64,000 nt of DNA from Blastocladiella emersonii ATCC 22665 (taxonomy: Eukaryota; Fungi; Blastocladiomycota), in NCBI GenBank assembly GCA_025594325.1, contig JANHCV010000012.1:186001-250000 (forward strand), in the 5' to 3' direction. A model generated the notes under the pieces. The model ran no database searches. It was not told where the DNA came from and worked only from the letters and a program-made list of their open reading frames with translations. The translations under genes and the position numbers were made by a program. Shown in pieces: positions 4,425-39,270 of this stretch (its first letter is position 1; the number at the start of each line of letters is the position of its first letter).

Positions 4425-5144
4425 GCTCAGCTACCTCCCTGCTGCTTGAGGAGCGCGACATGAGTTTGCGAGAGCTAAACTCGGTGTATGTGCCGTTTGT
4501 TGATCGTGTTGAAGTACTGGGTCATGGCGTCACCGATCTGCAGGTTAGCCATCTGCACACAGGCAGTCGTCTTGTCGAGCTTGCCCTCGAGGAGGTCGGC
4601 GATGACCGTGCCGGCCTTGCTCCGCTTGTCCGTGTCGACGTCGGTCATCTGGAAGCGCGCGCGACGCCATGTCGGGTCAACTTCTTGTCCATGATCATCT
4701 CCCTAGCGCTCTAGCCCCCTCGAGGGGCGAGCAAACCTCCTTGGCGCTCGAGCCCCCTCGCACGCTGACGTGCTTGCGTCTGCGGGTGAGGTCGAGACCG
4801 GCAAGCGCTCGCAGTGCCAGGAGGTAGACGCTCTGCGCAAAGTGGTCAACTTGGACGCGGGTAACGCGTCCATCATGCGAGCATTCTTCTCGAGGATGCT
4901 CGCCGGAATCAGAGAAGTGTGCGCAACTGAAAATGTGCTCATCGCCGACTTACACTCATGAACGCTGAAGCGGGGAAGCGAGCGCGAAGCGAGAACGGCC
5001 AAAGGCAAGGGCGAAAGGGCATAGCCCTGCGCCAGTGCCAGCCGAAGGCTGTGTGACGGCAAATGAAGGATGGTATGTTGAGCTGAATCACATGTTATTT
5101 TGTTGGCCAGGATAGTTCTACAGCTCGCACATCGGACTGGACGG

Positions 5145-16247: not shown

Positions 16248-17023
16248 TGCCGTATCCCTTAAGGGATACGGCATGGGCTGACCCACCACCACCTGGGCTG
16301 ACCAATTGCTTACCCCGAGCGGTCGGCGGCAGTCACTCAGGCTAACCACGTGATCGGCAATGCGTTACCCCGGGTAATATATTGAGATTTGCCAAATGCC
16401 CCAGGGGTACGGCACGGGGGCGGGTGGCGGGTGGGTCACGTGGATCACGTGCAGATGAACGGCGCGTGGGCACGGCTGCGAGTCAATCTGCGAGACAAGT
16501 CCAAGAGCAGATCCCTGAGCCCGTCCCTGACCAACCGCTCGGGCTGACCATTGCTTACCCCAAGCGGTTGGCGGCGGCCGGCGAGCGCAGCGAGACAAAG
16601 AGCAGCGCAGCTGCGGCTACCCACTGACAGAGTTCCATGGTCTGGTCCCTGACCTGACCCCCGAGCCTGTCCCTGACCTGACCCCCGAGCCCGTCCCTGA
16701 CCTGACCCCCGAGCCCATCCCCGACCACCTGCCGCAAGCGGCTGCTATGAAGCCACTCACCGTAAAGGTTCCACTTTCATGGCATATTACGACAGAGTAT
16801 ATATATACACTACCCTTTTTTGCCATGAAAGTGGAACTTTCAAAGACAAGAGGTCAGGGTACGGGGGGGGGGGGGAAGGTTGAGGACAAGGGAGCGTCTT
16901 AGCAGCATCAATGTATTGGGCAGGACAGGGGTCAGGGCAAGGGAGCGTCTTAGCAGGCAGCATCTTAGCAGGCAGGAAGGCAGCGTGGCAGGTCGTGGAG
17001 TGTCTTAGAGCTCGTTGTTGTCC
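16248..17023 (+). repeat. Left terminal inverted repeat (776 bp)
   Basis: Reverse complement of 31614-32359; differs by one 24-bp unit, G-run length and about 3 substitutions; begins with 26-bp palindrome TGCCGTATCCCTTAAGGGATACGGCA. Confidence 0.95.
16768..16837. promoter_or_regulatory. Origin-like inverted repeat in TIR: 17-bp arms around a 36-bp AT-rich spacer
   Basis: GTTCCACTTTCATGGCA (16768-16784) / TGCCATGAAAGTGGAAC (16821-16837), TATATATATA in spacer; mirrored in right TIR. Confidence 0.55.
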
Positions 17024-17492
17024 AGCTTGAGGACAAAGGTCGGGGACTGCTGCGGGGTGGTCGTCCAGCTTGCCCAGTGAGCCGCGTGGCTGGTGAACTG
17101 ACCAACCGCGTGGCTGGGGAATTAGCGCTATCCCTTGCCCTATAAGAACCCCCCACCGCCCCCCTCCCCAGACCTGCTCTCCACCACCCACAACTGAAGC
17201 CATGACACAGATTCACTGCCTCAAGCCCCTGCTGGAGCGCGTATAGGCCATCTTGCTGCAATGAGCCCAACACACTCACAGGACTTTTGGTATGGGTGTC
17301 ATGGCCAACGTTGTGGGTGGTCAAAGTGTACGGCACAAGACGTACAGGGCTATCTGCTGTGCACGGCAATAGACTCAGTTGCTTGTGTCAGGACATGGAG
17401 CGCTGCGCGGACTTGCTACCCGTGCAGTTGCACCATGGACCTTTCTTCCTTTATCCTGTTGGCGCTGTGTGGTCAATGAGCTTTGGTCTGTG

Positions 17493-17604
17493 CTGGTGTC
17501 CTGGTGTGTTGGTGTCCTGGTGTCCTGGTGTGTTGGTCTCCTGGTGTCCTGGTGTGTTGGTGTCCTGGTGTCCTGGTGTCCTGGTGTCCTGGTGTGCCGG
17601 TGTA
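17493..17604. repeat. 8-bp tandem repeat (CTGGTGTC / TTGGTGTC / CTGGTGTG) with 24-bp higher order, about 14 units
   Basis: Directly visible. Confidence 0.9.
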
Positions 17605-18294
17605 CTGTGTGGTCGATGAGTACTTGGCAATGATGCCCTGCTCCACACTGGAACTCTGATTAGTGGTTGGCCACCATGAAAGGAGACTCCAGTGTGGGGC
17701 AGTCTGGGGGCTGCCTGGCCAGCAGCTCCTGGACGGGGGCGGAGCACCCATTGCTACGTTATGTCATTACAGGGGGCTGTGGTCACGTGACCAGTTGCCA
17801 TGGACTGTTTGGTGGTGATGATGGAAGCGCGTTCAACGCACAAGTCTTTGACTTCTTCTCTGAGCCTTCAGTAACCCATGCGGGGCTGCATCCTTGACAT
17901 CACTCCCCTGCCTCAACCGCCGTGCGACCACTTGGAGCCACCTCGGTGGGTCTATGACAACCAGTTCCTGCTGGCCACGGTAGTTTACCCATGCTGTCAT
18001 CACACGTACACTTACCGCCGTAACGACTACTAAGTCTTTGGTCTTCAGTCTTCAAGGTAGCATTCACTGTTAACTTGAAGGGGCGCTTACTCAAAGCGCA
18101 CGGTGTACACAACTTTGACGCCGGGTGGACTTGTGTCTCGGATGGCCGTGTACTGGCTCAGGAACTTTGGCCCTGGTGTGGTTGGAGAAGGTGTATGGGG
18201 TGGTGACAAAGTGCAGCCAGTAGCCTGGTTCATGGTGTTGTCTCTTACTACGTTGTCGGGAAAATAAACACATTGCGCTGATGCGTTGCTTAGT

Positions 18295-18399
18295 CTACGG
18301 CGCGAATATCTTTGAGCGCGCTGGAGGTGTACCAATGATGGCAAGGTTGGCCACAAGGATGACCACGTTGGCTGCAAGGACAAGTGTCTCAAGGATCAT
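18295..18399 (-). CDS. Viral 34-aa hydrophobic peptide
   Basis: MILETLVLAANVVILVANLAIIGTPPARSKIFAP; preceded by the shared motif TTTTTTGCTGTGTACATGTAAG-ATG. Confidence 0.4.
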   Translation of the reverse strand: MILETLVLAANVVILVANLAIIGTPPARSKIFAP

Positions 18400-18429
18400 C
18401 TTACATGTACACAGCAAAAAAGTCGCAGC

Positions 18430-19176
18430 TCAGATGAACGCAAGCTCAATGTAGAAGGGTTGCCCCAGGAAGTCAACAGAGCGCAGGTTCTTGTCCACCA
18501 CGTCAACGTCAATGGAGTCTATCAGCTGTGGTGTGCCTCGCGCGTCAAAGCGAAAGTAGTCGCTCATGTGTGGACGGTGCTTGAACCAGCTCCCAAACGG
18601 CTGTGTGACATGGATGCTGCACAGCACACCATTGTCCTGCGGGTACGCCAAGAACATGTTGTCCGCAAGGCGGCTGCCCAGGTTGTGCGAGTACACATGC
18701 AGCAGGTTGATGGGAGAGATGTTCACCAGAGATGTCCCGTACTGGACCTTGCTGTAGCCGTAGCTGCTGACAAAGCCCATGTGTGTGTTCAGCGCAGCGG
18801 CCCCTGTCCCAACAGTGAAGTCGCAGGTGTCATTGGCAATGCGCATCTTCTGTGTGGTGGAGTCAACCTGCACATCCCATGTGCCCTGCCACAGAAGACT
18901 TGACGGCGCGTTGTTGAGCAGGCTCTTGAGCGTTGACATGAACGTCTCAACTGTGTAGTTGCCGTCAGGGACAGTGATGGTCCCTGGGAAGGTCACACTG
19001 CCACGGCTCTGTGTCAGGTACACCTTGTTGGCCTTGGAGTTGACCGTGTGCCAGCTGTTGCAGAGGTATGCTGAGTTGACCTTGATGCCGCTCACAGACA
19101 CGGCCCGCGGGAGGTACAGCACACCGTTCTTGAGGTCGCGGCTGCAGATGGTCAGTGTCTTGTAGGAGCCAGTCAT
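18430..19176 (-). CDS. Minor capsid (penton-like) protein
   Basis: ITVPDGNYT, NISPINLLHVYS and IDVDVVDKNLRSVDFLGQPFYIELAF are typical of Polinton/PLV minor capsid proteins; located downstream of MCP. Confidence 0.8.
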   Translation of the reverse strand: MTGSYKTLTICSRDLKNGVLYLPRAVSVSGIKVNSAYLCNSWHTVNSKANKVYLTQSRGSVTFPGTITVPDGNYTVETFMSTLKSLLNNAPSSLLWQGTWDVQVDSTTQKMRIANDTCDFTVGTGAAALNTHMGFVSSYGYSKVQYGTSLVNISPINLLHVYSHNLGSRLADNMFLAYPQDNGVLCSIHVTQPFGSWFKHRPHMSDYFRFDARGTPQLIDSIDVDVVDKNLRSVDFLGQPFYIELAFI

Positions 19177-19197
19177 TTAAGTAAGGCTTAGAAGATA

Positions 19198-19464
19198 TTA
19201 TTGCACTGCCGTGCCTGTGTCGTTGTCGTCTGTCTCAAAGATCTCACTTGTTGGCCGGTTGTACCATGTGTGGATGTCCTGGGCCAGGTCAGCGCCCTTG
19301 GACACAAGCTGTGCCACAGACGACACGGCAGGGTTGTGCGAGCGCTCAAAGAACTTGGACACGGTCTTGACTCCCTTGAGCACGGTGGGGAGATGCTTGT
19401 TCACAAAGCCGCCTACCTGGCCGAGCACATTGCTGAAGTTGGTCCACAGGTTCCTGAAGATCAT
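19198..19464 (-). CDS. 88-aa viral protein with N-terminal amphipathic helix
   Basis: MIFRNLWTNFSNVLGQVGGFVNKHL; between MCP and minor capsid; shared upstream motif. Confidence 0.6.
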   Translation of the reverse strand: MIFRNLWTNFSNVLGQVGGFVNKHLPTVLKGVKTVSKFFERSHNPAVSSVAQLVSKGADLAQDIHTWYNRPTSEIFETDDNDTGTAVQ

Positions 19465-19503
19465 TGCGTTTAACTGTACGCAAGAAAAGAATGCACGCGG
19501 GGC

Positions 19504-20724
19504 TTACTTGTAGAGGTTGACCTTGCCGGTTGGGAGGAACTTGTACACAATGTCAACACCAACAAAGGCGTCAACACGCTGGTTTGGGACAGTGTTTGAG
19601 GTGAGGATGATCTGCATGTCCACGGCCTGGCTCTTGCAAGACTTGTCGCCGCTGACAATGGTACGGGATGACTCAAGGTTGCGGCCAATGCAGAAGGTCC
19701 CCTCAGCTGGCGCATTGTACTTGTCCACTGACATGCCTGCACCAATGACATGGCCATGGAAGGCGTTGGACAGCTCTACAAAGGCCTCTGAAGCGTAGTT
19801 GTCACAGCGGACAGGCTTCTGGGGGAAGAGACGGCCACTAACGCTGAACTGGTACGTTGCAATGGTCTTGGCACGGAGGAACAAGTCCTTGGCATTGTCA
19901 TTGAGCACTGCGTTGTTGCGGAACGACACCAGCACGTCCTTTTGTGACGCACTGCGGTCAGAGACGTTGAGCGTAGAGTTGGGCACCGAGTAGTTGAGGA
20001 AGTGGTGGTTGTACGTTGTGCCGTAGAGCTTGAGACCCTGGTTCTTGAAGGCAGCGTCCATGACAGCGATCTGCTGGTCATTGAGCTTGATCAGGTCAGA
20101 CACAATGCACACGTCCTTGACACTGTAGCTTGGGATGGCATTGTTCTTGACCACACAGGCATCTGCACCAGGAGCCAGGGTGAACTCGATGCGGATACCA
20201 CCAAGGTACTTCATGGGCAGATGCTTCTGGTTGGACAGCAGTGCAGACTTGATGGGCAGCATGTACCGGTGAAGTCCAGATGACACAGCAAAGCGGTCAG
20301 CCCCAGTGGCAAAGTAACCCTGGGCCATGCCAAGGCATGAGTCCTTGAGGTGCTGCGGGACAGTCACGTCAGCCTCAATGCGCTGACGCAGGTTGTAGTA
20401 GGGAAGCTCTTCCAGCAGGGCTCCACCCGCGCTGTAGACTTGCACACGGTCAATGATGCTGAAGATGCCATCACAGAAGGCGACGTTGGCATCTGCAGTC
20501 TTGGCACTGAACTGCAGGAACGTGCAGTGGGTGTCCATCATGTCATTGTGCGGGGGCAGGAGGACACTGATAGTGTTGCCAGGTGCAAACTTGGGGCCGC
20601 CCTGTGCAGTGAACTGGACAGTCTGGCGCTCGGCATACACAGACTCCTTGGGCAGGTTAAACGTCATCTCTGGCGGCAGAGTCTTTGACAGGACCTGGGA
20701 GAACTGGGCATTGGTGGAAGACAT
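19504..20724 (-). CDS. Major capsid protein (double jelly-roll type, PLV-like)
   Basis: 406 aa, beta-rich; FAPGNTISVLLP, SIIDRVQVYS..LEEL..YN, HLPMKYLGGIRIEFTLA; adjacent to ATPase and penton. Confidence 0.8.
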   Translation of the reverse strand: MSSTNAQFSQVLSKTLPPEMTFNLPKESVYAERQTVQFTAQGGPKFAPGNTISVLLPPHNDMMDTHCTFLQFSAKTADANVAFCDGIFSIIDRVQVYSAGGALLEELPYYNLRQRIEADVTVPQHLKDSCLGMAQGYFATGADRFAVSSGLHRYMLPIKSALLSNQKHLPMKYLGGIRIEFTLAPGADACVVKNNAIPSYSVKDVCIVSDLIKLNDQQIAVMDAAFKNQGLKLYGTTYNHHFLNYSVPNSTLNVSDRSASQKDVLVSFRNNAVLNDNAKDLFLRAKTIATYQFSVSGRLFPQKPVRCDNYASEAFVELSNAFHGHVIGAGMSVDKYNAPAEGTFCIGRNLESSRTIVSGDKSCKSQAVDMQIILTSNTVPNQRVDAFVGVDIVYKFLPTGKVNLYK

Positions 20725-20767
20725 GGCGTGTGTTACTGAAGCACAAGAAAAAAAGTCGCTGCGTTGC

Positions 20768-21568
20768 TTAGTCCTTGATGATCCACTCGCTGAAGCTGTC
20801 TACCAGCCTGTACTTGGGACTGTTCTGGTTGTTGACACCAAGGAAGCGTCGCTTGGTGTTGCCCTCTGAGCGGGTGTCAAAGAGCTGTTCAATGATCACC
20901 TCAAACTCCTTGAGCAAGAACTGCGACCCGATCTCCTTGTGCAGTGTCTTGACCTCTGTCTTGTTGTAGATGGGGTACACAACGCTGTAGCTGCAGTTGA
21001 TGCGCAGTGTCTTGGGCAGAGCACACCAGCGCTGCACGCCAATGATGCAGCTGATCTTGAGGTGTTGCGAGTTGCACAGGAAGTTGGTCAGCGTCTTGTG
21101 GGACAGCAGCTTGAGCCCCAGCACGTCGTCAATGATCAGCAGCTGGTCCTGCAGTGCCTTCTTGCCCTGGTCTTCAAAGGTCTTGGTCAGGTCTTTGTGC
21201 ATCTTGAGCAGCGTGGGGATGAACAGCTCTGGGTCCGTGACAATGCACGATGGCTTCACCTTGAGCCGGTTTGGGTTGTGCTCCTGTGGATCAAGTACAT
21301 TGTGCTGCTTCTTGGGTGGTCGCAGGATCGCCTGTGAGGCAATGTACTTGTACTTGTTGTCAGCATGGAAGGTGGGGTTGAAGACCCAGATGTTGTCAAA
21401 GCATCCCTTGTAGAACTGCGGGAAGCACACAAGGTTGGCGATCAGTGTTGACTTGCCCTGACCCTTGGCGCCAATGACGTTCATGGTGAAGGGGTGCTTG
21501 GGGATGGGCAAAGGCTGGTTGTCGTCGTTCCTGGTGAAGCTGTTGTCAATGGCCACAATGTCGTACAT
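20768..21568 (-). CDS. A32/FtsK-like genome packaging ATPase
   Basis: Walker A GAKGQGKS, Walker B LLIIDD, LRINC arginine-finger region; likely start MYDIV at 21568. Confidence 0.9.
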   Translation of the reverse strand: MYDIVAIDNSFTRNDDNQPLPIPKHPFTMNVIGAKGQGKSTLIANLVCFPQFYKGCFDNIWVFNPTFHADNKYKYIASQAILRPPKKQHNVLDPQEHNPNRLKVKPSCIVTDPELFIPTLLKMHKDLTKTFEDQGKKALQDQLLIIDDVLGLKLLSHKTLTNFLCNSQHLKISCIIGVQRWCALPKTLRINCSYSVVYPIYNKTEVKTLHKEIGSQFLLKEFEVIIEQLFDTRSEGNTKRRFLGVNNQNSPKYRLVDSFSEWIIKD

Positions 21569-21593
21569 CTTACTGTACCCCAAGACAAAAGGT

Positions 21594-21794
21594 TCACGCC
21601 CAGCCAAGGTCAGTGACAATGCCACTGCGCTTGGGGACTTCGCGCACTTGCTTGACTGGTCGCTCAGGGAGCTTCTGGTGACGCTTGATCTGGGGTGCTG
21701 TCAGGCCACTGCCGGCCAACGTCTTCTCTGTGAACAGCTTCACGTCCAGGGGCTTCTTGTAGCCCAGTTGCTTGAGGATCTGTTCGAGTAACAT
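21594..21794 (-). CDS. 66-aa basic viral protein
   Basis: K/R-rich ORF with shared upstream motif GTAGTAGTAAG. Confidence 0.45.
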   Translation of the reverse strand: MLLEQILKQLGYKKPLDVKLFTEKTLAGSGLTAPQIKRHQKLPERPVKQVREVPKRSGIVTDLGWA

Positions 21795-21848
21795 CTCTGT
21801 CTTCTTACTACTACCCTCGGAATTGTTCTTGGGCGCGTCTGCAAGCTG

Positions 21849-23312
21849 TCAGATGAGCTGCTCCAGGTTGCTGGTGTCCAGGACCTGTGGCTGTGCTGGC
21901 GGCTGCATCGTGTCCAGCTTGCTGCCCAGGTCCTGGAGTGTCTTGTTCACAGCAGCATTGGGCTCTGTCTGTCCCTGGATGGCGCTCTGGACACCTGTTG
22001 CAAGCTGGCCAATGAGTCCCTGCTGGTTGGTCAGGGCAGTTGACATGCCGCTTGCAATCTCAGACACCAGTGCACGGTTCCCTGCATCAATCTGTCGCAC
22101 AAAGGCGTTGCGCTCTGCACGCAGTGTGTCCACAATGTTAGCTGCAAGGTTGGCAAAGGTCTCAAGTGCCAGTCCTTGGGCGTTCTTGGACTGCTCAATC
22201 AGGGCCATGTATGCCTGGTACTGCATGACCTGACTGTTTGTGAACTGGCCAGCAATGACGTCCAGCGCAGCCATCACGTTGGGGTCGCTGTTGTACTGCA
22301 CCATGATCTGTGTACGCAGGTCATTGTTCTGCTGGTAGTAGTTCTGCTCGTACTGCGTGATGTACTGCCGCATGTTGTAGTTCTGCGTGTTGTCCTGCTG
22401 GAAGCTGCTGTACACGTATTGATTGAACTGCTGAAAGTTCTGGACAATGTCGACCTCCATGTCGTCTGTTGTGGTCAGTGCCCGCTCTGGGTTGTAGACC
22501 TGGATGTCCTTGGAGCTTTCAATCATCTGAGACTCGTTCATGGTGGGATGTACGTGTGTGTCATTGTACACAGAGCCGCGCTGTGGAAGGTCCTGTCCGT
22601 AGCTGGGAGGGACAACAACCAGGTTGCATGTGCCATTGTCGAGCTGGGGTGGAAGGTCATTGCCGCCGTCGTTGTCATTCTGGATCAAGTAACGTCCAGG
22701 GATCATGCCAGCGTACTCTGGGATGTCCTGGCCAACGTAGTCACCAGCGTCCACAGGGTACTCTTCAGGGACAACTGGGCAGACAGGTACAGGCAAGAGA
22801 TGGTCTGGCACACGCTGCCCTGCTGTCTCCAGCATCTCAGCAAGTTCGTCCAAGGTGTCCTGTGGCCTCTGTGAGCCTATGCCAGAGTCTTGTGTGCTTG
22901 GGACGTCTGGTGTGTCTGCGCCTGTGTCAGAGTCTGGCGTGCCTTCCTGTGCAACAGGAACACGTTGGATGCCACTGCTAACGCTTGTGCTTGCTTGCTT
23001 GATGGTGTCATAGACGTGCTGCATGACGCTCTCTGAGTCTTGCCCCATGATCTCTCCATTGTGTCTCAGGAACAGCATCCCTGATTGCTTGCCCTCAAAG
23101 TCGTCTGCATAGCTCTCTGGTGTGACAGCGTAGTCAAAGGCAAGGATGTACGGGACCCACACAGTGAGGAACTCCTTGGCTGTGGGGAAAGTGTACGTGC
23201 GTCCATCAATGGTGGCCTTGATCCTCTGGCCAGGCATGCGCTCTGCAGTGATACAACTGTTTGTCTTGGCTGCAACGTCTTCCAGTTGCTTGGTGATGGG
23301 TCTTTGTGTCAT
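21849..23312 (-). CDS. 487-aa viral protein of unknown function (Q/N/Y-rich middle, helical C-terminus)
   Basis: Intact ORF from MTQRP; CACCATG context and shared upstream motif. Confidence 0.7.
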   Translation of the reverse strand: MTQRPITKQLEDVAAKTNSCITAERMPGQRIKATIDGRTYTFPTAKEFLTVWVPYILAFDYAVTPESYADDFEGKQSGMLFLRHNGEIMGQDSESVMQHVYDTIKQASTSVSSGIQRVPVAQEGTPDSDTGADTPDVPSTQDSGIGSQRPQDTLDELAEMLETAGQRVPDHLLPVPVCPVVPEEYPVDAGDYVGQDIPEYAGMIPGRYLIQNDNDGGNDLPPQLDNGTCNLVVVPPSYGQDLPQRGSVYNDTHVHPTMNESQMIESSKDIQVYNPERALTTTDDMEVDIVQNFQQFNQYVYSSFQQDNTQNYNMRQYITQYEQNYYQQNNDLRTQIMVQYNSDPNVMAALDVIAGQFTNSQVMQYQAYMALIEQSKNAQGLALETFANLAANIVDTLRAERNAFVRQIDAGNRALVSEIASGMSTALTNQQGLIGQLATGVQSAIQGQTEPNAAVNKTLQDLGSKLDTMQPPAQPQVLDTSNLEQLI

Positions 23313-23350
23313 GGTGGTTACTGTATGAAGCAAAAATAAACCCCAGGCAA

Positions 23351-23494
23351 GGTACACTTTGCACCTGTTTGTGGTACACTTTGTACCGTCAAGGGTACAC
23401 TTTGCACCTGTCTGTGGTACACTTTGTACCGTCAAGGGTACACTTTGTACCTGTCTGTGGTACACTTTGTACCATCAAGGGTACACTTTGTACG
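23351..23494. repeat. Array of seven 15-bp imperfect palindromes GGTACA-CTT-TG(T/C)ACC in a 43-bp period
   Basis: Copies start at 23351, 23373, 23394, 23416, 23437, 23459, 23480. Confidence 0.95.
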
Positions 23495-23728
23495 TTGTGC
23501 ATTGCGCTTGGCATTGAGTGCCTTGTAGATGCGGATCTTGACGCGCTCTGCCCGTGCTGCCTCACTGTCAACGTGGACAAAGCGACTGGCCTTGCAGTCC
23601 CTCTTCTGTAGCCACTTGGCCTTGTTGTCGTCGCTCTTGTTGTACCAGTTGGATGGCACAGGGAAGGTCCCTGCAAGGTGTTCACGCCACTCATCAAGGG
23701 ACATGTCCTGGTACTCTGAGCAATTCAT
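23432..23728 (-). CDS. Possible small viral ORF (98 aa)
   Basis: MNCSEYQDMSLDEWREHL..; start lies only 19 bp from the divergent fibre start and its 3' end overlaps the repeat array. Confidence 0.35.
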   Translation of the reverse strand: MNCSEYQDMSLDEWREHLAGTFPVPSNWYNKSDDNKAKWLQKRDCKASRFVHVDSEAARAERVKIRIYKALNAKRNAQRTKCTLDGTKCTTDRYKVYP

Positions 23729-23747
23729 TTCTTGCACTAAGTTAAAC

Positions 23748-25688
23748 ATGGTCAAGAATATATTCAACGTGTCTACCAACGTGTCACCAACAGTGTCTGC
23801 CACAGGTGTCTCAGATGTGTCCAAGGCATATGTTGATGCTGCCATCAGTGCTGTCTATGCCACAGTTGGTGCACCTGTCGCTGGGCCTGGACTCAGCGTG
23901 TCAGGGACAACTGTCTCTGCCAAGGTCGATGACCAGACACTGGGTGTTGGTCCAAGCGGTCTCTATGTCAAGTCAATCAGTACGGCCCAGCTCCTGCCAG
24001 CCAGCGTCACTGCAGACAAGGTTGTGAGTGTCACAGCTGCACAGGTCACAGGTAAGCTTGTTGATGCACAGCTGGACACTGTGTCAGCATCCAAGGTCAC
24101 TGGTGTGCTCAGTGCGTCCAACCTTCCAGCGCTTGGGACAACGTCCATTGCAGATGGCTCTGTGACAGACGCCAAGGTTGCCTCAGTGTCTGGGTCCAAG
24201 CTGGTTCCGGGGACTGTCAACACAGCAGCTCTTGCAGACACCTCCGTGACAGACGCCAAGGTTGTCTCAGTGTCTGGGTCCAAGCTGGTTGCAGGAAGTG
24301 TCTCAACACCTGCTCTTGCAGACGCCTCAGTGACAGACGCCAAGGTTGCCTCAGTGTCCAGGTCCAAGCTGGTTCCAGGGACTGTCAGCACAGCAGCACT
24401 TGCAGACACCGCAATAACAGATGTCAAGGTTGCCTCAGTGTCCGGGTCCAAGCTGGTTCCAGGGACTGTCAGCACAGCTGCCCTTGCAGACGCTGCTGTC
24501 ACCAACGCCAAGCTGGCCACTGGTATAGACGGTGCAAAGCTCAACGTGTCATCTGTGGGAACAGCACACCTTGCAGCAGGGTCAGTCACTGATGCCAAGG
24601 TCACAGATGTGTCTGCCACCAAGCTGACAGGGACGCTTGATCCTGCACGCATTGCAGACAGTTCACTGACCAATGCCAAGCTGGCCACTGGGATAGACGC
24701 TGCCAAGTTGTCTGGGACCATTGACCTTGCACGACTGCCTGACGTGTCCAGCAAGGTGTCAAGTGTCAACGGAGCCATTGTCACTGGGACGCTCCCCCAG
24801 TCCACCCTTGGACTTGGCAGTGTCTTTACCTTTGCCAGTACTGTGGACAGCACATCAACGTCCACTGGGGCAGTCACTGTGGCAGGTGGCCTTGGTGTGG
24901 GCAAGCAGCTCACTGTGCCAAACGTCCTTGTCCGGAACACAGTCAGTGCAAATGTGGTCTTTGACTCTGCTGCCAACACACTCACATACATTGACTTCAA
25001 GCAAGCAGGTGTCCTGAAGAGCAACCTGGCATGCACTGCACTGGGCACCATTGAGATCGCTTCAGCAACCAATGGTGGTGTGTCCTTGGCTGCAGGTGGC
25101 GGCAATGTGGTTGTGGGCTCGGCGACGCTTGGCACAGAAAAGCTCTGTGTCAATGGCACTGGTCGCTTCACAGGGCAGCTCACCCTTGACCTCGCTCCAG
25201 TGGCAGGCACCGACGCAGCAAACAAGGCGTACGTTGACTTGCGGTCTGGCATGACCTGGTACGTTGCTCAGGCTGAGCACCGCTCTACAAACAGAGTGAC
25301 CACGGGCGGCAAGATCATTGGCGGCACAGCATTGACGGGCCCGGCCACCTTTGCGTTCCAGTCCACGGCGGGCGCGTTCACATCTGTGATCAATGGATGC
25401 GTCAAACCCCCTGTCAGTGGCTACTACCTCGTCCATGCAAAGGGCTACTACGCAAACGGCACGCTCCCTGGATCCCACACTGTGAACTTTGCGCTGTACA
25501 ACATGACGGACATGATTGCAGTGTCGCTTGTCACCGGGTGCCGCGCTGAAGGCAACGTCCAGTTCCTTCAGTTCTTGAGCATCGAGTACCTTGACGCGGC
25601 CAAGAGCTACTCTTTCATCTGGATCCCGTTGGTCGCAGTTGCCAACAACTGCCAGGTCATCATTCAAAGCCACTGGACCCTGCTCTAA
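23748..25688 (+). CDS. Fibre/spike-like virion protein, 646 aa
   Basis: 28-aa (84-bp) repeats VTDAKVASVSGSKLVPGTVSTAALADTS, KAYVD motifs, STSTGAVTVAGGLGVG, C-terminal beta-rich head (KPPVSGYYLV). Confidence 0.75.
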   Translation: MVKNIFNVSTNVSPTVSATGVSDVSKAYVDAAISAVYATVGAPVAGPGLSVSGTTVSAKVDDQTLGVGPSGLYVKSISTAQLLPASVTADKVVSVTAAQVTGKLVDAQLDTVSASKVTGVLSASNLPALGTTSIADGSVTDAKVASVSGSKLVPGTVNTAALADTSVTDAKVVSVSGSKLVAGSVSTPALADASVTDAKVASVSRSKLVPGTVSTAALADTAITDVKVASVSGSKLVPGTVSTAALADAAVTNAKLATGIDGAKLNVSSVGTAHLAAGSVTDAKVTDVSATKLTGTLDPARIADSSLTNAKLATGIDAAKLSGTIDLARLPDVSSKVSSVNGAIVTGTLPQSTLGLGSVFTFASTVDSTSTSTGAVTVAGGLGVGKQLTVPNVLVRNTVSANVVFDSAANTLTYIDFKQAGVLKSNLACTALGTIEIASATNGGVSLAAGGGNVVVGSATLGTEKLCVNGTGRFTGQLTLDLAPVAGTDAANKAYVDLRSGMTWYVAQAEHRSTNRVTTGGKIIGGTALTGPATFAFQSTAGAFTSVINGCVKPPVSGYYLVHAKGYYANGTLPGSHTVNFALYNMTDMIAVSLVTGCRAEGNVQFLQFLSIEYLDAAKSYSFIWIPLVAVANNCQVIIQSHWTLL

Positions 25689-25714
25689 AGCCCACGGTCC
25701 CACTTTTCTTGGAC

Positions 25715-26797
25715 TCAGACTGGGACGCGCCTGACCCAGGTCGAGGGCTCCCTTGGCGTGACCGGGGTGCGCGCAGCAGGGAGCCTTGGAAAACTTGGAC
25801 CTACGCGCTGCCTTGTTGGCGGGTCCTGGGTCGCTGTGACTGGCTGGACGTTGCTGCGTGGATAGAAGCCCTTCAAGTCACCAACCTTGTACAACGGGTT
25901 GCTCACACCAGAGCCCTTGCGGACAGCTGTGACTTGGTGCACTGTGGACGTCCATACTGGCTTTCCCTTTGCTTCCATGGCTGTCTTGTACGGCTCACGG
26001 ACACGTACCTGTGTTCCAACTTTGAGCAGCGCACTGAGTGGGTCACCCTCTGGCTTGCCCTTGGCAGCACGGATGGCCTTGAGTGTGTCCTTGGCAGCGT
26101 CTTGCGGCATGTCATGGAAGTCATTGGGCGCCTTGCCTGTAGCTCTGGACTTGCTGCTGTTGATCACGGACTCTATGGTCTCAAGGTACTTTGGCCAGTT
26201 GTTGTTGCCTTCAATGGACAGCCACGGTGTCAGCATCCTGCGAATGGTCCCGTTCATACGCTCAATGACACCTTGACCGTACGGCACACCTGCCTTGCCT
26301 TTGATGTGCTTTGCGCCTGTCCCCGCTTCAATGCCATTGAACTCTGTGCCATTGTCTGTCTGGATGGTTGCTGGTGTCAGGTTATGCTTGGAGACAACGT
26401 TGTCCCATGCCTGCCGTGTCAGGTCCTTGGTCTTGACTGGACGCAGGAACACGCGTTGAGTTGCCAAGTCTACACAGGTAAGAATGTACCTGAACCCGTT
26501 GAAGGTACCTTTCTTGCCCATGTCTATGAGGTCCAGCTGCCAGTTGCAACTGGGGCTCGTTGAGTTGATGCTTTGGATGTCGCGCCGCTTCTGTGGTGCA
26601 CGCTTGTACTGCTGCCACACAGACTGCTCATTGAGCCACCTCCCTAGCTGTGCGCAGTACACGCGGTCACCAGTGTTCTCTCTGGACACAATGTCAAAGA
26701 GCCAACAGATACCAACACCTACATGGCCGCGCTTGTAGTACAGGTCACTGAGGAACGCTTGCTGTGCGTCTGTGAGTGGTGCTTCGTGTGGATACAT
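25715..26797 (-). CDS. Retroviral-type (rve) DDE integrase, Polinton-like
   Basis: WQLDLIDM (D), IQTDNGTEF (D), GVIERMNGTIR (E), C-terminal KVGTQVRV SH3-like segment. Confidence 0.92.
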   Translation of the reverse strand: MYPHEAPLTDAQQAFLSDLYYKRGHVGVGICWLFDIVSRENTGDRVYCAQLGRWLNEQSVWQQYKRAPQKRRDIQSINSTSPSCNWQLDLIDMGKKGTFNGFRYILTCVDLATQRVFLRPVKTKDLTRQAWDNVVSKHNLTPATIQTDNGTEFNGIEAGTGAKHIKGKAGVPYGQGVIERMNGTIRRMLTPWLSIEGNNNWPKYLETIESVINSSKSRATGKAPNDFHDMPQDAAKDTLKAIRAAKGKPEGDPLSALLKVGTQVRVREPYKTAMEAKGKPVWTSTVHQVTAVRKGSGVSNPLYKVGDLKGFYPRSNVQPVTATQDPPTRQRVGPSFPRLPAARTPVTPREPSTWVRRVPV

Positions 26798-26820
26798 TAC
26801 ATTACGGCAACAAAACAAGG

Positions 26821-27981
26821 TCAGACAAGGTAGTGGGCCACGGCGACAGGTACGCTGTGACCCATCTCAGCAGCACGCTTGGCCACGGCCTTGTACGCGT
26901 CCTTGTTCTCACTGGTGCTGATGCGGCGGATCTGCTGGACACCGCACCCCTTGAAGCCAACGTCCTGTGCTGCCAGCGCAATGGTCTTGGACCAGTCTTT
27001 GCGGACCTTGGCGTTGACCTGAGCATCACAGACGTTGTCCAGGCTGTGGTTGTAGAAGACCAGGTCATGGCCGTCAGCAAGACGCTTGGCAATGACGCGC
27101 TCAAGGGCAGCAGCAACCTTGGGGTCAGCAATGACATGCGAGAACCCATAGCCACGGCCATCTGTCTTGACGCACACAGGGCCGGCCAGCGTCTTGGTCT
27201 CGGGGTTGTAGCTTGGGTACTTGTCACTGGGCTTGGTGGTCAGGAACGCAAGGTCACTGCAGGTTGCACAGACGACTTGGAGGTACAGACGCAGAGCACG
27301 CATTGTGCCAGACACCTGGTATGTGTCCCAGTTCTCAGCAGCAACAACAGCAGCCAGCAAGTCTTCATGGCTTGGGAGTGCACCAGTCTCCACAGCCTTG
27401 CGCGCGTCAAGGTGAGCTTCAGCGTCCTGCTTCTTGGTCTGCGTGTACTGTGCAGCAAGGTCGTCATTGCCATTCCACTTGCAGTACTTGGCCAGCGCCT
27501 TGAGCGTCTCAACCTGCAGACCCTGTGCCTTGTCTGTGCCCTTGGTTGCACGGTACGTCTCCACAGCCTTTGTCACACTGTTGACGTCCTCAATGGCCAG
27601 CCCCAACTTGCAGAACGCAGTCAGCACGCGACACAGCTTGGACTGGTCATCGGCACTGAGCTGGGACACTTGGCCGTACTTGTTCACCACAGGCTCGCTG
27701 GCACGCGCCTTGATGGATTCCTCAGTCATCTGCGCGTACTTGACCTGGGGATCAGTGTCCATGGGCTCGCCAGACTCATTGGTGGGGGTGTGATTGGAAC
27801 TGTGATTGCAGTCACGTGACACTGCAGCCAGCGCAGCGAGGCTGGTCTCGACTCCCTTGAGCCGCTCATCAAAGGACGCCAGCAGCGGCTTGATACCATC
27901 AAGCACTTGGTGCACTACGTCGGCGGCAACGTGCTGAGCAACAACCTTGGACACCTGGGACACAAGCGCTTTGAGAGACAT
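26821..27981 (-). CDS. Tyrosine recombinase (catalytic Arg apparently replaced by Cys)
   Basis: LYL..ATCSDL (PLRNDY-like box I), VKTDGRGYG (K), QQIRR, AAEMGHSVPVAVAHY (box II). Confidence 0.8.
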   Translation of the reverse strand: MSLKALVSQVSKVVAQHVAADVVHQVLDGIKPLLASFDERLKGVETSLAALAAVSRDCNHSSNHTPTNESGEPMDTDPQVKYAQMTEESIKARASEPVVNKYGQVSQLSADDQSKLCRVLTAFCKLGLAIEDVNSVTKAVETYRATKGTDKAQGLQVETLKALAKYCKWNGNDDLAAQYTQTKKQDAEAHLDARKAVETGALPSHEDLLAAVVAAENWDTYQVSGTMRALRLYLQVVCATCSDLAFLTTKPSDKYPSYNPETKTLAGPVCVKTDGRGYGFSHVIADPKVAAALERVIAKRLADGHDLVFYNHSLDNVCDAQVNAKVRKDWSKTIALAAQDVGFKGCGVQQIRRISTSENKDAYKAVAKRAAEMGHSVPVAVAHYLV

Positions 27982-28069
27982 CTTACCGTAGCCCCAGAAA
28001 AGAAGGCGTCACTGCTCAAGTGCGTTTGGCGGTATTGTTAAATATATTGTGCGTCGATAGTAGGACACC

Positions 28070-31000
28070 ATGTACTACGACAGTGACAGCGACAGCCATG
28101 TCCCCAACCCCCTTGATGAGTTCCTGCTTAGCATTGCTTACTGCAGAGGCAAGGTGGTTGACTTTGACAAGGTGAAGGCCTTGACCATGGACGCTGCACG
28201 CAAGGCATGGCTGGGCAATGACGAGTCTCTGGCAGAGGCCATGAAGACGCTGCGTGTTGTTATTGCCCGTCTTGCAGTGTTGCAGCACGTCCAAGGGGCG
28301 CCTGTGAAGACACAGCAGCTGTACGACAGCACGTCAATGAAGCGGCTCCTGCCAGACATCCCCTTGAAGAAGGGTGCTCCCTCAATTGACTTTGACCAGC
28401 TTGCACAGGACACGATGCACAGGACGGGACAAGGACACGATGCACAGGGCAGGCCAACCAGGACGGGACAACGACACAATGCACAGGACAGGCCAATGAC
28501 ACAATGCACAGGACAGGCCATGCCAACAAGGGCTCCCAGGGCACAGTCATTAACGCTAAATCCTGCGCGTTTAAACGCACCTGTCCTGTCACCCTTTCTG
28601 TTACCTCATCATAACAACATGGTCTGCAATCAGGTTCCCGGTAAACATGGCACTGCCTTTGGTCTCAAGTGGTTCCATGGCAAGGATGGTGGCAACAGCG
28701 ACATGGGCCCTCAGCGCACGCTCTTGTCCAAGCTGCAAGACAACAAGACGGTCATCAAGCGCCTTGTTGACAAGGGCGTCGACAACCACGGCCAACCCAA
28801 GGCGGCGCACTACTTTGCCAAGGTCAAGACAGCTGACCTGGCCGGGCTCCTTGACAAGAACCGCTGCATCCAGGAGATGGTCCACCCCAAGCGCCTGTCC
28901 AAAGTCTACTTTGACATTGACTGCCCGGGCAACCGCAAGGACGTGACCCTGGACGTCATCAAAAAGGTCATCCTGGCCCAGTTCCCCGGCGCCAACCTCC
29001 AGGTCTGTGGCTACAAGACGGACCTCAAAAAGGCGTGGCACATTGTCCTCAGCAACTACACGGCCACGCTCAAGGACATGCCGTTCCTGAAGCTGTTCTG
29101 CAGCCACCCCGACCATGTCAAGCTTGGCTTTGACTCCAGCGTGTACAGCAAGCACCGCTTCATGAAGTGCATCAACCAGTCCAAGCCCAAGAAGATGCCC
29201 GGCGTGTGGATCTTGGGTAACAAGGACCGCCTTCCAAGCACTTGATCCAGTGCGACTTTGACCACAACTGCGCGTCGGTCTTGGACCTGTCCTTTGAAGA
29301 GTTTGTGACTGCCAAGGCCAAGGAAGCGCGGACCAAGCGCCACGCGGGTCGCCTTTGCACATCCTTGAACTTGGGGATGTCAAGGTCGTGCAGATCGACC
29401 CCGACTTCTTCTACTACAACGCCACGCCACTTGAGATCCTCCACAACATCCCCATCAGCCCCGAGAACGCGTTCCACAACAACGTGACCTGGCGGATCAT
29501 GACATGGGCCATGCGCAAAGGGGTCACATTTGACCAGTTCTGGGCGTGGACGTCGCAGCAGGACAACTTGGCTCAGCGCATGCAAAAGTACTGGGGCCGA
29601 TGGAACGAGATTGCCAGCAACGACAACTACCAGGTGCTGGACACGTTTGTCAAGGCCATCTTCTACAAGCGGTTCCCAGCCGTGTTCAAGTCCAAGGCCA
29701 TGGCCAAGTTTGAGCAGTCGCTTGAGGTACCAGTGGACGTGACCAGCCCCAACTAGTTCCTGTCCTGCGACAACATTACCCTGGCCAAGTTCAACATGCT
29801 GGCCACGGGCATGGGCTCCAACAAGACGGCGCTGTGTGCGACTACATTGCCAAGTACCCAGACGCGTGAGTGGTCTGGATCACACCTTGCATCACCCTGG
29901 CCCACAACACCGAGGGTCGAGCCCGCAAACAGAAGCTTGGCTTTGTCAACTACTGCAGCATCAAGGACAAGAAGACACTGGGGGATCACAAGCGACTCAT
30001 TGTCTCGCCGTGCTCGCTGCACTACTTGACCGAGCCCTACAACATTGTTGTGGTGGACGAGTCCAAGACGGTCCTCAAGGTGTTCCAGGACGCCAAGTTG
30101 CACACAACCACCATTCGCAACAACCTCGAGGCCAACCTCAAGGCCTTCAAGACGCTGTGCGAGCACAAGGGCAGCAAGGGTATCTTCATGGACGAGTTTG
30201 TCACAAACCTGACCATGGACGTCCTCCGCTCCTTTACTGTCAAGCACAACATCAAGACCATACTCCATGGTAAGATCAAGGTGATCACGAACACGCTTGG
30301 CAAGAAGTTTGAGCCGCGCAAGATGAGCCTCATCACTGACGACAAGGATGAGGAGAAGTCCGCCAAAGACATCATGGAGAGCAACATCATTGCCGACCTC
30401 AAGGCCAACAAGAAGCTCTACCTCTTCATCCCACAACCATTCAAGAAGTCAACCAAGTGGTTGGTGCAGACCTTTGGCAAGTACCTCGAGCTGGTCTTTG
30501 CCAAGGAGAAGTGGAAGATTGGCAAGCAGATCAAGCTCTACCACGGCGACCGCCCCAACCACGAGGACAAGGAACTCATTGACCCTGACTCTGTGTGGTG
30601 TGGGGCAACGATACGGTCCGTATAGTCATCGCCAACCTCAAGATCACTGTGGGGGTCAACTTTTTGAAGCCATACGTCTTCCACAAGGTGTACGCGCGCT
30701 ACAAGTCCTGGGTCCCTGCCCACGACTTCTTCCAGGCAATCTACTGCGTGCGCTACCCCATTGACAACAAGATCGTGTTCATGATCAGCCATGGTTGCCG
30801 CAGCGCGTACATGAACAAGTTACAGGTCATTGACTCGGACTTGGTTGGCAAACTTCACCGGGCTATTGTCAAGAACACAGATCTTGAGAACAAGATGGCC
30901 GCTGTGACCTTCTGCCTCAAGGTCTTTGACGCCTTCCGCAAGGTCGCCAACATTGTCATGGACGACTCCCCCGAGTACTACTACAAGGCGCACCCCGAGA

Positions 31001-31632
31001 TTAAGGATGTCATGACGTTGGGCTGGTCTTTTGAATGGGCAAACGTCCAGCTACCGTCCAAGGAGATCATGCGCGCCTACTGCAAAGGTACCATCAAGGA
31101 CCCAGACTGGACCATCTCCCTCTCTGTCCGCAAGGCCTTCTTCATCCGCAAGTTCAATGGTCTGAGCATGGACAACATGAAGATCATCTGGGACGACAAC
31201 GCGGAGAGCTTCATGGAGCGTATCCAGCACTTTTACACCAAGGACAAGGGCCACGTCCTGCAAAAGCTCCTGGAACACAACAACATGGACCTCTGCACGT
31301 CCAAGGAGTTCAACATCCAGGCCACCATCCCCGCCAAGTTTGAAGCAGACATCCATAAGTACTTCAAGAAGCTTGGGTATTACAAGTGTGACACAGCAAC
31401 AGTCCAAAACAGGCTTCTCAGCACTTACTTTAACAAGTGCCTTGCTGTGCCAGACAAGGACGAACCCTGGGTCTCAGTACGCGGCAAGAAGTACAGGAAC
31501 CTGAAGTGGACAGACAACATTCTGTACTTTGTCATGTACGAGACCTGGACCCCACCCCCAGCCAATCCGGCCCCGTTTGTCCTGGAGATGGACAAGGACG
31601 AGGACAACAACGAGGACAACAACGAGCTCTAA
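28070..31632 (+). pseudogene. PrimPol-type AEP primase + PriCT-like + UL9/OBP-like SF2 helicase; at least 4 frameshifts and 2 stops
   Basis: VYFDID, AWHIVL, GFDSSVYSKHRFMK (AEP, from Met 28619); TWRIM..FWAW..YWGRW; GMGSNKT and VVVDES helicase motifs; stops at 29754 and 29867. Confidence 0.85.
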
Positions 31633-32359
31633 GACACTCCACGACCTGCCACGCTGCCTTCCTGCCTGCTAAGACGCTGCCTGCTAAGACGCTCCCTTGC
31701 CCTGACCCCTGTCCTGCCCAATACATTGATGCTGCTAAGACGCTCCCTTGTCCTCAACCTTCCCCCCCGTACCCTGACCTCTTGTCTTTGAAAGTTCCAC
31801 TTTCATGGCAAAAAAGGGTAGTGTATATATATACTCTGTCGTAATATGCCATGAAAGTGGAACCTTTACGGTGAGTGGCTTCATAGCAGCCGCTTGCGGC
31901 AGGTGGTCGGGGATGGGCTCGGGGGTCAGGTCAGGGACGGGCTCGGGGGTCAGGTCAGGGACCAGACCATGGAACTCTGTCAGTGGGTAGCCGCAGCTGC
32001 GCTGCTCTTTGTCTCGCTGCGCTCGCCGGCCGCCGCCGACCGCTTGGGGTAAGCAATGGTCAGCCCGAGCGGTTGGTCAGGGACGGGCTCAGGGATCTGC
32101 TCTTGGACTTGTCTCGCAGATTGACTCGCAGCCGTGCCCACGCGCCGTTCATCTGCACGTGATCCACGTGACCCACCCGCCACCCGCCCCCGTGCCGTAC
32201 CCCTGGGGCATTTGGCAAATCTCAATATATTACCCGGAGTAACGCATTGCCGATCACGTGGTTAGCCTGAGTGACTGCCGCCGACCGCTCGGGGTAAGCA
32301 ATTGGTCAGCCCAGGTGGTGGTGGGTCAGCCCATGCCGTATCCCTTAAGGGATACGGCA
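31614..32359 (-). repeat. Right terminal inverted repeat (746 bp)
   Basis: Includes the last codons of the helicase ORF; ends in the 26-bp palindrome 32334-32359. Confidence 0.95.
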
Positions 32360-32631
32360 CATGTAGTCCAGCTCTCTCTCAATGAATTGAGAATGGTTCT
32401 GAAGCGGGTGGCGGCTGTTGATGCCGACAGAAGGAGGCAGGAGACAAGTAGTCAGGAATGTCTATTCCTGCCTTTTGCCCCAAACCCAAGACGGGGAGAG
32501 GGGAGAATGGATAAAAAAGCAGGGCGCGCCGCAGCGGGGTGCGGCGGCGCGGGAGCGAGGGATTGCGGGCGGCTCACGCGAGATCAGATGATTGATCACC
32601 ACGGTTGTGGCCGCATGAACGACACGCAACA

Positions 32632-34479
32632 TCACCTCCCCCCAGACCTGAGCGACTTGACGAACCCTTGGTGCACCGCGTTCTTGAGCTGGCGACCGGA
32701 CCGGCTGCGCGTGATGGATGACGGCGGGTTGGGCGAGGGTGAGCGCGCGCGCTTCGGGTTGGCGCGGGCGGGCGATGAGGCAGCCGAGGACTGCGTGACT
32801 GAGAACTGCGACTTGTCGGCCGAGACTTGGCGAGGAGCAGGATCTTGGCGTGGAGCGGGCACAGGGGAAGACGCGGCGACTTTGGGGGCGAGACGCTGCA
32901 GCAAACGCTGGCGCTCGAGCCAGGTGTTGGCCGAGATCTTCTTGTGGTAGTCGTTGATGGCGCCAGCGGTGTCAAAGCTGCTGGTGGGGATCCACGAGTT
33001 CTTGGCGGAGCGATCGGACCAGCGGACCAGGTACTCGCGCTCGCCATTCGCGCCGTTGCAATGACGGAGGATGTTGCGCACGGTGTCCAATTCGCCCAAA
33101 GGCGCCGACTCGGGCTGGATGAGGCGCAGGTGGTGCGCGGGGTAGATGGACTCGGTCATGAGCTTGAGGTGAGCGAGCTGCTCCTGCTTGGTCATGTCGC
33201 GGAGGGGCGGCTGCGCGCGGTCGTTGCAGAGCGCGTTGGTGGGACGCGCGAACATGAGCGAGAAGGGCGTCGAGCTGTGGCGCGCGTGCGCGCGCGTGTT
33301 GTAGGGGTACTGGATGGCCGGGACCATGGCGGGCCAGCGGTTGAGCTGCCTGTTGAGCGAGGGGAGCAGCGTCTCCTTGACCGAGCGAACGAGACGCTCC
33401 GAGGCGCCGTTGGCCTGCGGGTGGTACGGCGACACGAGGTGGCAGTCAATGCCGGCCATGTTGGCGAGCGAGGCGATGATCTGGTTGGCGAACTCGGGGC
33501 CGTTGTCGGACTGGATGATGCGCGGGAAACCGAACTGGAAGCACGTGGCCAGGAAGCAGGTGGCGACCTCGCCGGCAGACGCGGAGCGGATCGGGTGCAG
33601 CCACGCGAACTGGGTGCAGATGTTGATGATCACGAGCACGTGCGTGTATCCGTTGGGCGAGATGGGCAGCTGCATGCAGTCCATGGACAGGTGGTCGAGC
33701 GGCAGCAGCGCCTCAATCGAGCGCATCGGGTGGAAACCCTGCCGCGTGGCCGAGAACCGCGCGCACGGGATGCAACCGGCAATGACGCGCTGGCAGTCGG
33801 CGAGCATGCCAGGCCATTCGTGGCCGAGGACGACAAGCTGCTGCTGTGTGGCCGCGGGACCCAAGTGGCCCCTGCCGTGCACGTCGTGGATGATCTGGTC
33901 GCGCTGGTCACACGGAACAGGCGCCGTGTCGAGGCGCTGTGCAGGCGGGATGGTGCCAATGGGCGAGAACTTGGGCCGCGGCGCGCTACCCTTGGGGGCG
34001 GGTGCGGCGGCGACAACGCGGGCGTGCGCGGCGGGCACAGGTGTTGAAGAAGAGCTGCCCCCATGGGTGGGTGCGGCAGCAAAAGCGCGGGCCCGCTCCG
34101 CGGGCGGGAGCGAGGCCGGCGCGAGGAAGAAGTGTCGAGCACGATTCTCCGCAAGGGAGAGATCGTGCGTCATGAGCTGCTCGAGCTCGCCGTCGCCGAG
34201 GGCACACTCGGGGAAAGACGGCGCGGGTGTTGAAGAAGAGCTGCCCCCATGGGTGGGTGTGGCAGCAAAAGCGCGGGCCCGCTCCGCGGGCAGGAGCGAG
34301 GCCGGCGCGAGGAAAAAGTGTTGAGCACAATTCTCTGCGAGGGAGAGATTGTGCGTCATGAGCTGCTCGAGCTCGCCGTCGCCAAGGGCACACTTGGGGA
34401 GAGACGGCGCGGGAGAGGATCTGGAGGGACCCCCCCCCCCACCAGCGGGCGCCCACGGGGGGAACGCGATACAGGACAA
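32632..34479 (-). pseudogene. Retrotransposon integrase + chromodomain
   Basis: HGRGHLG..CIPC zinc motif, HLSMDC, IIQSDNGPEF, QANGASER, EYLVRW..SWIP chromodomain; internal tandem duplication near 34020-34400. Confidence 0.85.
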
Positions 34480-35816: not shown

Positions 35817-36161
35817 AAAAATGCGGGCGTGCCCAGCCAGTCGGGGTCGACCGCACCGGCGCTGTCGTGCTCACGGCGCGCACCAGAGCGGGCGGGGGCG
35901 GCGAAATGCGCGACGGGACCGAGGCGGCCGCGAAGGGGATCGTCGTGGGTGACGGTGGCAGCGCGGGCCGAGGTGGGGCCGAGGCGGGAGCCGACAATGA
36001 TGTGGTAGAACTTGTCGAGCAGGTGCGCGAACAGGCTGGTGGCAGACGCTGGCAGGAGGGCGAGGACACGGAGGTGGTGGGCGAGCAGGGGCTGGGAGCG
36101 GGGAATGCCGTCGACCGCGCGGGCAGGCGAGGAGATGAACTTGGAGCGGGAGCGCTCAAGG

Positions 36162-37538: not shown

Positions 37539-38160
37539 GCGGAAAACTACTTGAAGAAAATGTTGATGCCGACAGAAGGAGGCAGGAGACAAGTAGTCAG
37601 GGATGTCTATTCCTGCCTTCGGCCCCGAACCCAAGACGGGGAGAGGGGAGAATGGATAACAAAGCAGGGCGCGCCGCAGCGGGGTGCAGCGGCGCGGGAG
37701 CGAGGGATTGCGGGCGGCTCACGCGAGATCAGATGATTGATCACCGCGGTCGTGGCCACATGAACAACACGCAACAGCGGCTCCAGCGCCTTCAATAAGT
37801 TGTTAGAGAACAACGTCGCAATCTAGCTGTGACAATTGCTCTTGCGATGCCGCTTGTATTAATATTAGTTCTGCTGCTTAATTCGCTGTTTCGCGTACAT
37901 TCATCTTTTGGTCAGCCGTTGATCGGGACGGCGTACGCGGCATTGAATAGACCCATAATCCAGGGTGGACCAGCGGCACTTTGCTTACATTTCATCAACG
38001 TAGCGATTCTATTGGACTTCGTGATCCTAAGAGAGTCGCAATTAATGAGCGTGTAAAGCGACTCGCGCTCGCCTCGCGATGCGCCACAGGTCACGCGACG
38101 TCGGTTTGGGGGTTTCAGCCCGCCCGGCAATCAAGTTCCCACGCTCCACACAACCACACC

Positions 38161-39172: not shown

Positions 39173-39270
39173 ACTTGATCGAGTCAGCGGACACTCTCGA
39201 CTCATGAAAAGCACGGCCGTGAACATTGCCACGGAGAACAGTTTATCGAAAATCAGGTAACGACGTGACA

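Follow-up and report, generated by a model that had tools for sequence, protein, structure and literature searches.

The window, by which we mean the whole 64-kb stretch of DNA that was analysed (64,000 nucleotides), contains an integrated Polinton-like element of 16.1 kb at positions 16248-32359, with the following features.

16248..17023, plus strand: left terminal inverted repeat (TIR), 776 bp, starting with TG, with the target duplication CATGT just before it
16248..16273, no strand: left terminal palindrome, perfect, 26 bp
16768..16837, no strand: dyad in the left TIR, candidate origin, consisting of a 17-bp arm, a 36-bp AT-rich spacer with (TA)5, and a 17-bp arm
19504..20724, minus strand: probable major capsid protein, 406 aa, tentatively identified by its size, its position, and its relatives in viral contigs
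20768..21568, minus strand: A32-type packaging ATPase (PF04665, E 2.6e-11)
25715..26797, minus strand: rve integrase (PF00665, E 3.5e-6, below the Pfam cut-off)
26821..27981, minus strand: 386-aa ORF with a recombinase-like C-terminal motif, no profile match
28619..31632, plus strand: putative AEP primase, UL9-like SF2 helicase, and C-terminal domain, in five reading-frame segments with in-frame stops
30781..31632, plus strand: uninterrupted ORF of the C-terminal domain, 283 aa, a predicted DNA-binding domain with a weak top match to UL9 547-843
31614..32359, minus strand: right TIR, 746 bp, ending with CA, with CATGT just after it; contains the helicase stop codon
31794..31863, no strand: right-TIR dyad, which mirrors the left one exactly and lies 162 bp beyond the stop codon of the primase-helicase
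32334..32359, no strand: right terminal palindrome, perfect, 26 bp

The sequence-only reading, made from the letters without database searches, had labelled the element a PLV, and the label is borne out by the TIRs, the target duplication, the A32 ATPase, the integrase, and a length of 16.1 kb that falls within the 15-25 kb range; the rve integrase is in turn consistent with the TG..CA ends and the 5-bp target duplication. The 406-aa probable capsid ORF had no match in Pfam or PHROG, and a search of IMG/VR alone gave no relative of the protein. Besides the rve integrase, the element carries the 386-aa ORF, which none of the profiles recognised and whose C-terminal motif we take to be tyrosine-recombinase-like; no match to pPolB was found in the element, and no ICP8-like gene was seen there. 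The genes run outward from a divergent gap (27981-28070) toward both TIRs, no element gene starts near either dyad, and each dyad is located downstream of a transcription unit, at a distance of kilobases from the gap. The eight nearest primase-helicase proteins are labelled Blastocladiella emersonii (seven) and Allomyces arbusculus (one), which argues for a zoosporic fungus as the host of this Polinton-like element, present there in multiple copies.

The window has further features, both within the element and outside it. A T-tract followed by (C/A)(A/G)GT(A/T)A occurs five times on the minus strand (starts 28001, 23336, 21590, 20754, and 19488), each time just upstream of a start codon in the minus-strand gene cluster; these motifs could serve as splice acceptors in a single long transcript, or else represent an initiator motif. 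An LTR retrotransposon (32416-37776) with 216-bp direct repeats that are 95% identical, encoding RT, RNase H, integrase, and a chromodomain, begins 56 bp from the right end of the element; a 1.4-kb element at 1352-2789 with 88-93-bp terminal inverted repeats is probably a non-autonomous DNA transposon; and a diverged inverted repeat pair (253 bp, 76%) at 38335-42400 surrounds ORFs 39271-40824 and 40739-42775 (DUF4470).

The dyad and the primase-helicase

The sequence-only reading had described two inverted 17-bp boxes flanking a 36-bp AT-rich spacer, once in each TIR, and this description is exact: the arms at 16768-16784 and 16821-16837 form a perfect inverted pair; the spacer (16785-16820, 72% AT) contains TATATATATA at 16798-16807 and ties for the highest AT content among the 36-mers of a TIR that is 60% GC; and the mirror copy lies at 31794-31863. 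The arm has four exact matches in the 64-kb window and no more at up to 3 mismatches (expected 0.19), shuffling the element 100 times gave no perfect arm longer than 14 compared with the 17 observed, and the hairpin has a z of -7.95. The dyad exceeds chance. Three CACGTG boxes are also present in the TIR.

Other genomic copies of the dyad were read as differences in contigs from one sample, possibly the window's own source. One spanning contig has five adjacent changes in the left arm (16778-82) and five complementary changes in the right arm (16823-27), assigned to one record by their identical depth values; the spacer of this variant copy shows several changes with a net loss of one base, and keeps the TA run. 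A paired change at 16775/16830 is also present, but in separate contigs. Because one template-switch event could yield five mirrored changes, these copies demonstrate that symmetry has been maintained, and do not by themselves demonstrate selection.

The proposal that the element encodes an SF2 helicase with UL9-like motifs fused to a primase, for which a profile search against UL9/OBP was suggested as a check, holds by way of homologues, a family profile, and a model, but not for the window's own pieces: none of the five stop-free pieces of the helicase gene matched Pfam, and a PDB search with one of them gave no match. Pfam Herpes_ori_bp (PF02399) matches three of the eight homologues, only across profile positions 16-211 of 820; a 26-sequence family profile matches HSV-1 OBP in the PDB across both helicase lobes at E 1.2e-22, the next match being at 0.029; and OBP is the best match for a model of homologue P0006 (pLDDT 79.6) by Foldseek (1e-14), the full model aligning to OBP with Z 24.7, rmsd 3.6, and 377 aligned residues (next helicase Z 21.4). 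The P0006 model also has a distant fold match to the ASFV PrimPol, and the family alignment contains conserved FDID, H, and KxxNQ motifs, which we take to be those of an AEP, followed by SF2 motifs. Alignments and model together support the prediction that the protein joins an AEP primase to an SF2 helicase of the UL9-like type. The fungal primase-helicases occupy a long branch of their own in the tree.

Folded alone, the C-terminal ORF of the window gave a pLDDT of 85.3, and this model ranked HSV-1 OBP 547-843 first of 48,161 chains, weakly (Z 4.8, rmsd 5.5, 145 aa; next 3.7) and at a Z that falls under the level the tool calls reliable. Foldseek found no match for the domain at E 0.001 in PDB or BFVD; the weak sub-threshold PDB rows are winged-helix proteins, and giant-virus "origin-binding proteins" are among the weak BFVD matches. 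The RVKNL motif is absent from the window's C-terminal ORF and from the rows of the family alignment. The modelled likeness of this domain to the UL9 origin-binding domain is suggestive only.

Relatives, controls, and co-variation

Relatives of the protein, 22-33% identical in the best segment, were found at 35 and then 55 IMG/VR loci (overlapping sets) and at 11 metagenome loci, some with Sputnik-type and others with window-type capsids. The first 35 loci and the element together contain 51 spaced inverted repeats, compared with 0.33 in shuffles. The relatives' sites have a median span of 67 bp and pair most strongly at 17-33 bp from an AT-rich centre; where present they number one to several per sequence, some in tandem, and they also lie within genomes; and the gaps that adjoin the helicase gene are enriched in them (35 of 87 versus 22 of 187 other gaps, the loci not being independent). 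The spacer of the window dyad is longer than in most relatives, and the dyad was missed by a relaxed scan tuned to them; scored against the relatives' half-site matrix, its arms rank 142 and 276 of 32,190 as the best of 18 offsets, a marginal result within the top 1%. Judged by such comparisons, the window site joins the family by build and gene, and less by sequence. A scan for the window's own arms gave one match, with 10-bp arms and no related helicase, which we took to be chance.

One relative deserves separate mention. In L142 a site at 4539-4601 has a TATATATATA centre, and its right arm read inward holds GTTCGCAT, 7 of the 8 bases of HSV Box I; this occurs in one arm of one of three sites, the other arms of the contig differ there, and so does the family consensus, and we regard the similarity as a weak lead.

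The controls were virophages fetched by capsid (80 of 279 matches, later 79 loci), 34 loci having an SF3/D5-type helicase; they are virophages, with no PLV-only set, because the alignment of the window's probable capsid protein was too variable to scan with. Loci, many of them partial contigs, were collapsed into clusters at 60% helicase identity, and of the capsid-fetched loci only those with an identified helicase entered the cluster count. The presence of any spaced repeat does not separate the helicase types (19 of 29 UL9-type versus 4 of 10 SF3 clusters, p 0.26). Short AT-centred dyads are found in 27 of 34 UL9-type clusters (25 within 700 bp of the gene) versus 2 of 20 SF3 clusters (1 near), and repeat-armed dyads in 8 of 20 SF3 clusters, where they are about 100 bp long, and in 4 of 34 clusters of the UL9 type, three of which look like short sites on inspection; the short and long classes were defined after inspecting the sites, and p-values for them are therefore descriptive. 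Counted by site, dyads of about 97 bp with 9-bp tandem arms make up 9 of 12 in SF3 virophages versus 2 of 64 in the UL9-type. Seven UL9-type clusters scored no short site (L027/L147, L022, L018, L132, L148, L150, and L130): the repeat rule misfiled a site in L027/L147, L022 showed one elsewhere in the analysis, and L018, L132, and L148 are long-branch outliers in the tree. The UL9-type loci are more AT-rich than most SF3 controls, yet AT-rich SF3 loci still show the long dyad type.

The dyads of about 100 bp in SF3/D5 virophages are built of 9-bp tandem units (e.g. TAAGATAGG, TTGTGAAGG) and often lie beside the helicase gene; they occur in L039, L051, L055, L060, L075, L077, L172, L173, L177, L181, L204 (there in tandem), L217, and others, and are a candidate second class of origin. 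One such long repeat-armed dyad (L032, 4669-4774) is borne by a contig that also has a UL9-type gene and short sites, and is possibly the relic of a replaced SF3 module. Long near-perfect palindromes with a common centre, TAATAACGTTATTA, are present in the unrelated virophage contigs L166, L167, L168, and L192, two of them at contig ends.

A DNA-only site pattern run against IMG/VR gave nine matches, two on known contigs and seven new. In five of the seven new contigs, which represent three lineages, the end of the gene lies no more than about 100 bp from a site, and three of these five share one identical site sequence; the other two are fragments ending within 360 bp of the site, and no SF3 helicase was found in the fetched DNA of the seven. 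Arm similarity correlates with protein similarity (Mantel, n=37), with rho 0.47 for the C-terminal domain, 0.45 for the primase, and 0.36 for the helicase (p 0.002), and because the C-terminal domain does not correlate more strongly than the primase does, the signal points to the gene and not to the domain. The correlation holds across capsid types (rho 0.46); among all pairs that differ in capsid, the arms are closest between L008 (virophage capsid) and L137 (window-type capsid), whose helicases are sisters. Arms do not co-vary with the tyrosine recombinase (rho 0.08, n=16), and within 11 virophages they correlate with neither the C-terminal domain nor the capsid. The sequence-only reading had proposed conservation of arms and spacer length among related elements as a check; the dyad is kept across copies and relatives, tracks the protein, and is not peculiar to this PLV. 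We conclude that the dyad is real, constrained, and family-wide.

Known systems and rival readings

The dyad resembles HSV-1 oriS in having two inverted boxes around a TA-rich spacer and one copy in each of two inverted repeats (PMC12543377, PMC13483431, PMC13458718), and the protein resembles HSV-1 UL9 in its homologous SF2 helicase core and in a C-terminal domain weakly like UL9 547-843. The window arm starts with GTTCCACTT, which lacks one base compared with oriS GTTCGCACTT and is oriented the same way, a likeness noticed after the fact. There are also clear differences: i) Box I, GTTCGCAC (PMC12543377), is not matched, as the window arm reads GTTCCAC, and most relatives' arms are unlike Box I; ii) the window site spans 70 bp with 17-bp arms and a 36-bp spacer, whereas oriS spans 49 bp with 8-bp boxes and an 18-bp AT stretch (oligo in PMC13483431); iii) a third box adjoins Box I in oriS, and none is present in the window at up to 3 mismatches; and iv) the window protein, unlike UL9, has a fused primase and is without RVKNL. 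The best reading, by analogy, is that the dyad would work like oriS but is not oriS, from which it departs in box sequence, spacing, and RVKNL.

An AEP domain N-terminal to a UL9-related SF2 helicase is described for mimivirus R8, ASFV pF1055L, OsHV-1, and the AEP-SF2 protein of mriyaviruses (PMC11253617), but here the protein sits in PLVs and virophages of 16-30 kb; the likeness to R8 and F1055L rests on motif order, the ASFV fold match, and published descriptions. The replication proteins given for virophages and PLVs are AEP-SF3, PolA-SF3, pPolB, and SF1 fusions (PMC11161782; bioRxiv 2026.06.19.733378), and we found no DNA site named for an AEP-SF2 protein in these papers or in PMC11253617. 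PLVs of the chytrids Spizellomyces and Allomyces are similarly integrated, with TIRs, target duplication, packaging ATPase, helicase, and integrase, but we found no cis-acting origin described for them (PMC7805220). Terminal palindromes are reported in non-pPolB virophages and PLVs of Halocafeteria (bioRxiv 2026.07.28.741278), and the window element likewise has terminal palindromes and no pPolB match; the window dyad, however, is a separate internal feature, and would have gone unreported in the Halocafeteria palindrome screen because its 36-bp spacer exceeds the gap limit of 10 (bioRxiv 2026.07.28.741278). We found no description of such a dyad site in the literature searched on oriS/UL9, virophages, PLVs, and AEP-SF2 proteins, which also included PMC4642659, PMC11296320, PMC5636890, PMC6905037, and PMC13533422 (supplements may list motifs or SF2 annotations), and the site is probably new to the literature.

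From the build of the site and the company it keeps, we think it probable that the dyad is a replication origin and that it is the virus's own AEP-primase/UL9-like helicase which binds there. The up to 4-5 site copies per genome are many for an origin, and count against this reading. Several copies, some tandem, flanking the gene as in the gap counts above, would suit binding by the same protein mainly at an operator or a recombination/tethering site, either regulating its own gene or joining genome copies, and UL9 is much more commonly seen to tether oriS molecules in trans than to loop oriS (PMC13458718); we nevertheless hold this to be unlikely, given that both window sites lie downstream of transcription units and far from the start gap, and that a TA-rich centre and a fused primase suit melting and priming. 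Even less credence goes to a transcription signal, whether a TATA promoter or an RNA hairpin/poly(A) signal closing each of the two transcription units at its 3′ end. The (TA)5 centre and the CACGTG boxes might suggest the former, and the downstream position of the dyads, the strong hairpin, and the many relatives' sites that begin right at a stop codon the latter. With the nearest genes pointing toward each of the dyads, a TATA promoter is disfavoured; moreover, 112 sites in 51 loci include 22 in convergent and 21 in divergent gaps, near the gap shares (48 and 46 of 294), the distance from site to start codon spreads from 55 to >1000 bp, no G-U bias is seen (18 vs 11, p 0.26), and five viral genes have their own upstream motif, while a promoter needs no 17-bp dyad.

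Repeated, often inverted copies at module borders, the recombinases encoded by many relatives, and the recombinase-like ORF of the window could all be taken to indicate a site for a viral tyrosine recombinase or integrase, acting in resolution, inversion, or excision. Tyrosine-recombinase sites usually have 6-8 bp spacers, however, and those of the dyads are about 19-36 bp (36 bp in the window); of the 15 SF3 loci that encode a recombinase of this family, only one has a short dyad; the arms do not follow the recombinase; and integration uses the TG..CA ends, 520 bp away. A recombinase or integrase site is accordingly quite improbable. Finally, the five adjacent mirrored changes would fit a single event in a functionless quasi-palindrome kept symmetric by template switching, but a mere by-product is hard to reconcile with a fixed geometry and position across proteins only 25-30% identical, or with a DNA pattern that predicts the gene, and we regard it as very improbable indeed.

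How the proposed origin would work, and what it may mean

If the dyad is the origin of the element, the C-terminal domain of the primase-helicase would read both arms, ATP-driven helicase action would open the TA-rich centre, the fused primase would prime there, and host or helper-virus factors would complete synthesis. In the free linear genome, firing would take place at one site some 520 bp in from either end, while the ends themselves may be dealt with by the 26-bp terminal palindromes, a role suggested for such palindromes in other elements without pPolB (bioRxiv 2026.07.28.741278). We wish to stress that the window's gene is broken, so that its site would work only with protein from another copy.

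The dyad is relevant to how replication starts in virophages and PLVs without a protein-primed polymerase, and in the literature searched we found no DNA target named for the giant-virus AEP-UL9-like proteins. Since dozens of natural protein-site pairs with differing arms are available, specificity can be tested by swaps. A broader proposal, which we put forward tentatively and with more doubt than confidence, is that helicase-specific origins travel with the replication gene in virophages and PLVs, a short TA-centred dyad with AEP-UL9-like proteins and a long 9-bp-repeat dyad with AEP-SF3 proteins; and that oriS and UL9 are homologues of the short dyad and of the C-terminal domain that reads it, such that this initiation system would long predate herpesviruses and survive as a one-gene cassette in protist and fungal viruses. 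The dyad bears on the origin of herpesvirus UL9/oriS, and if gene and site travel together, this may explain how replication modules pass from one capsid type to another.
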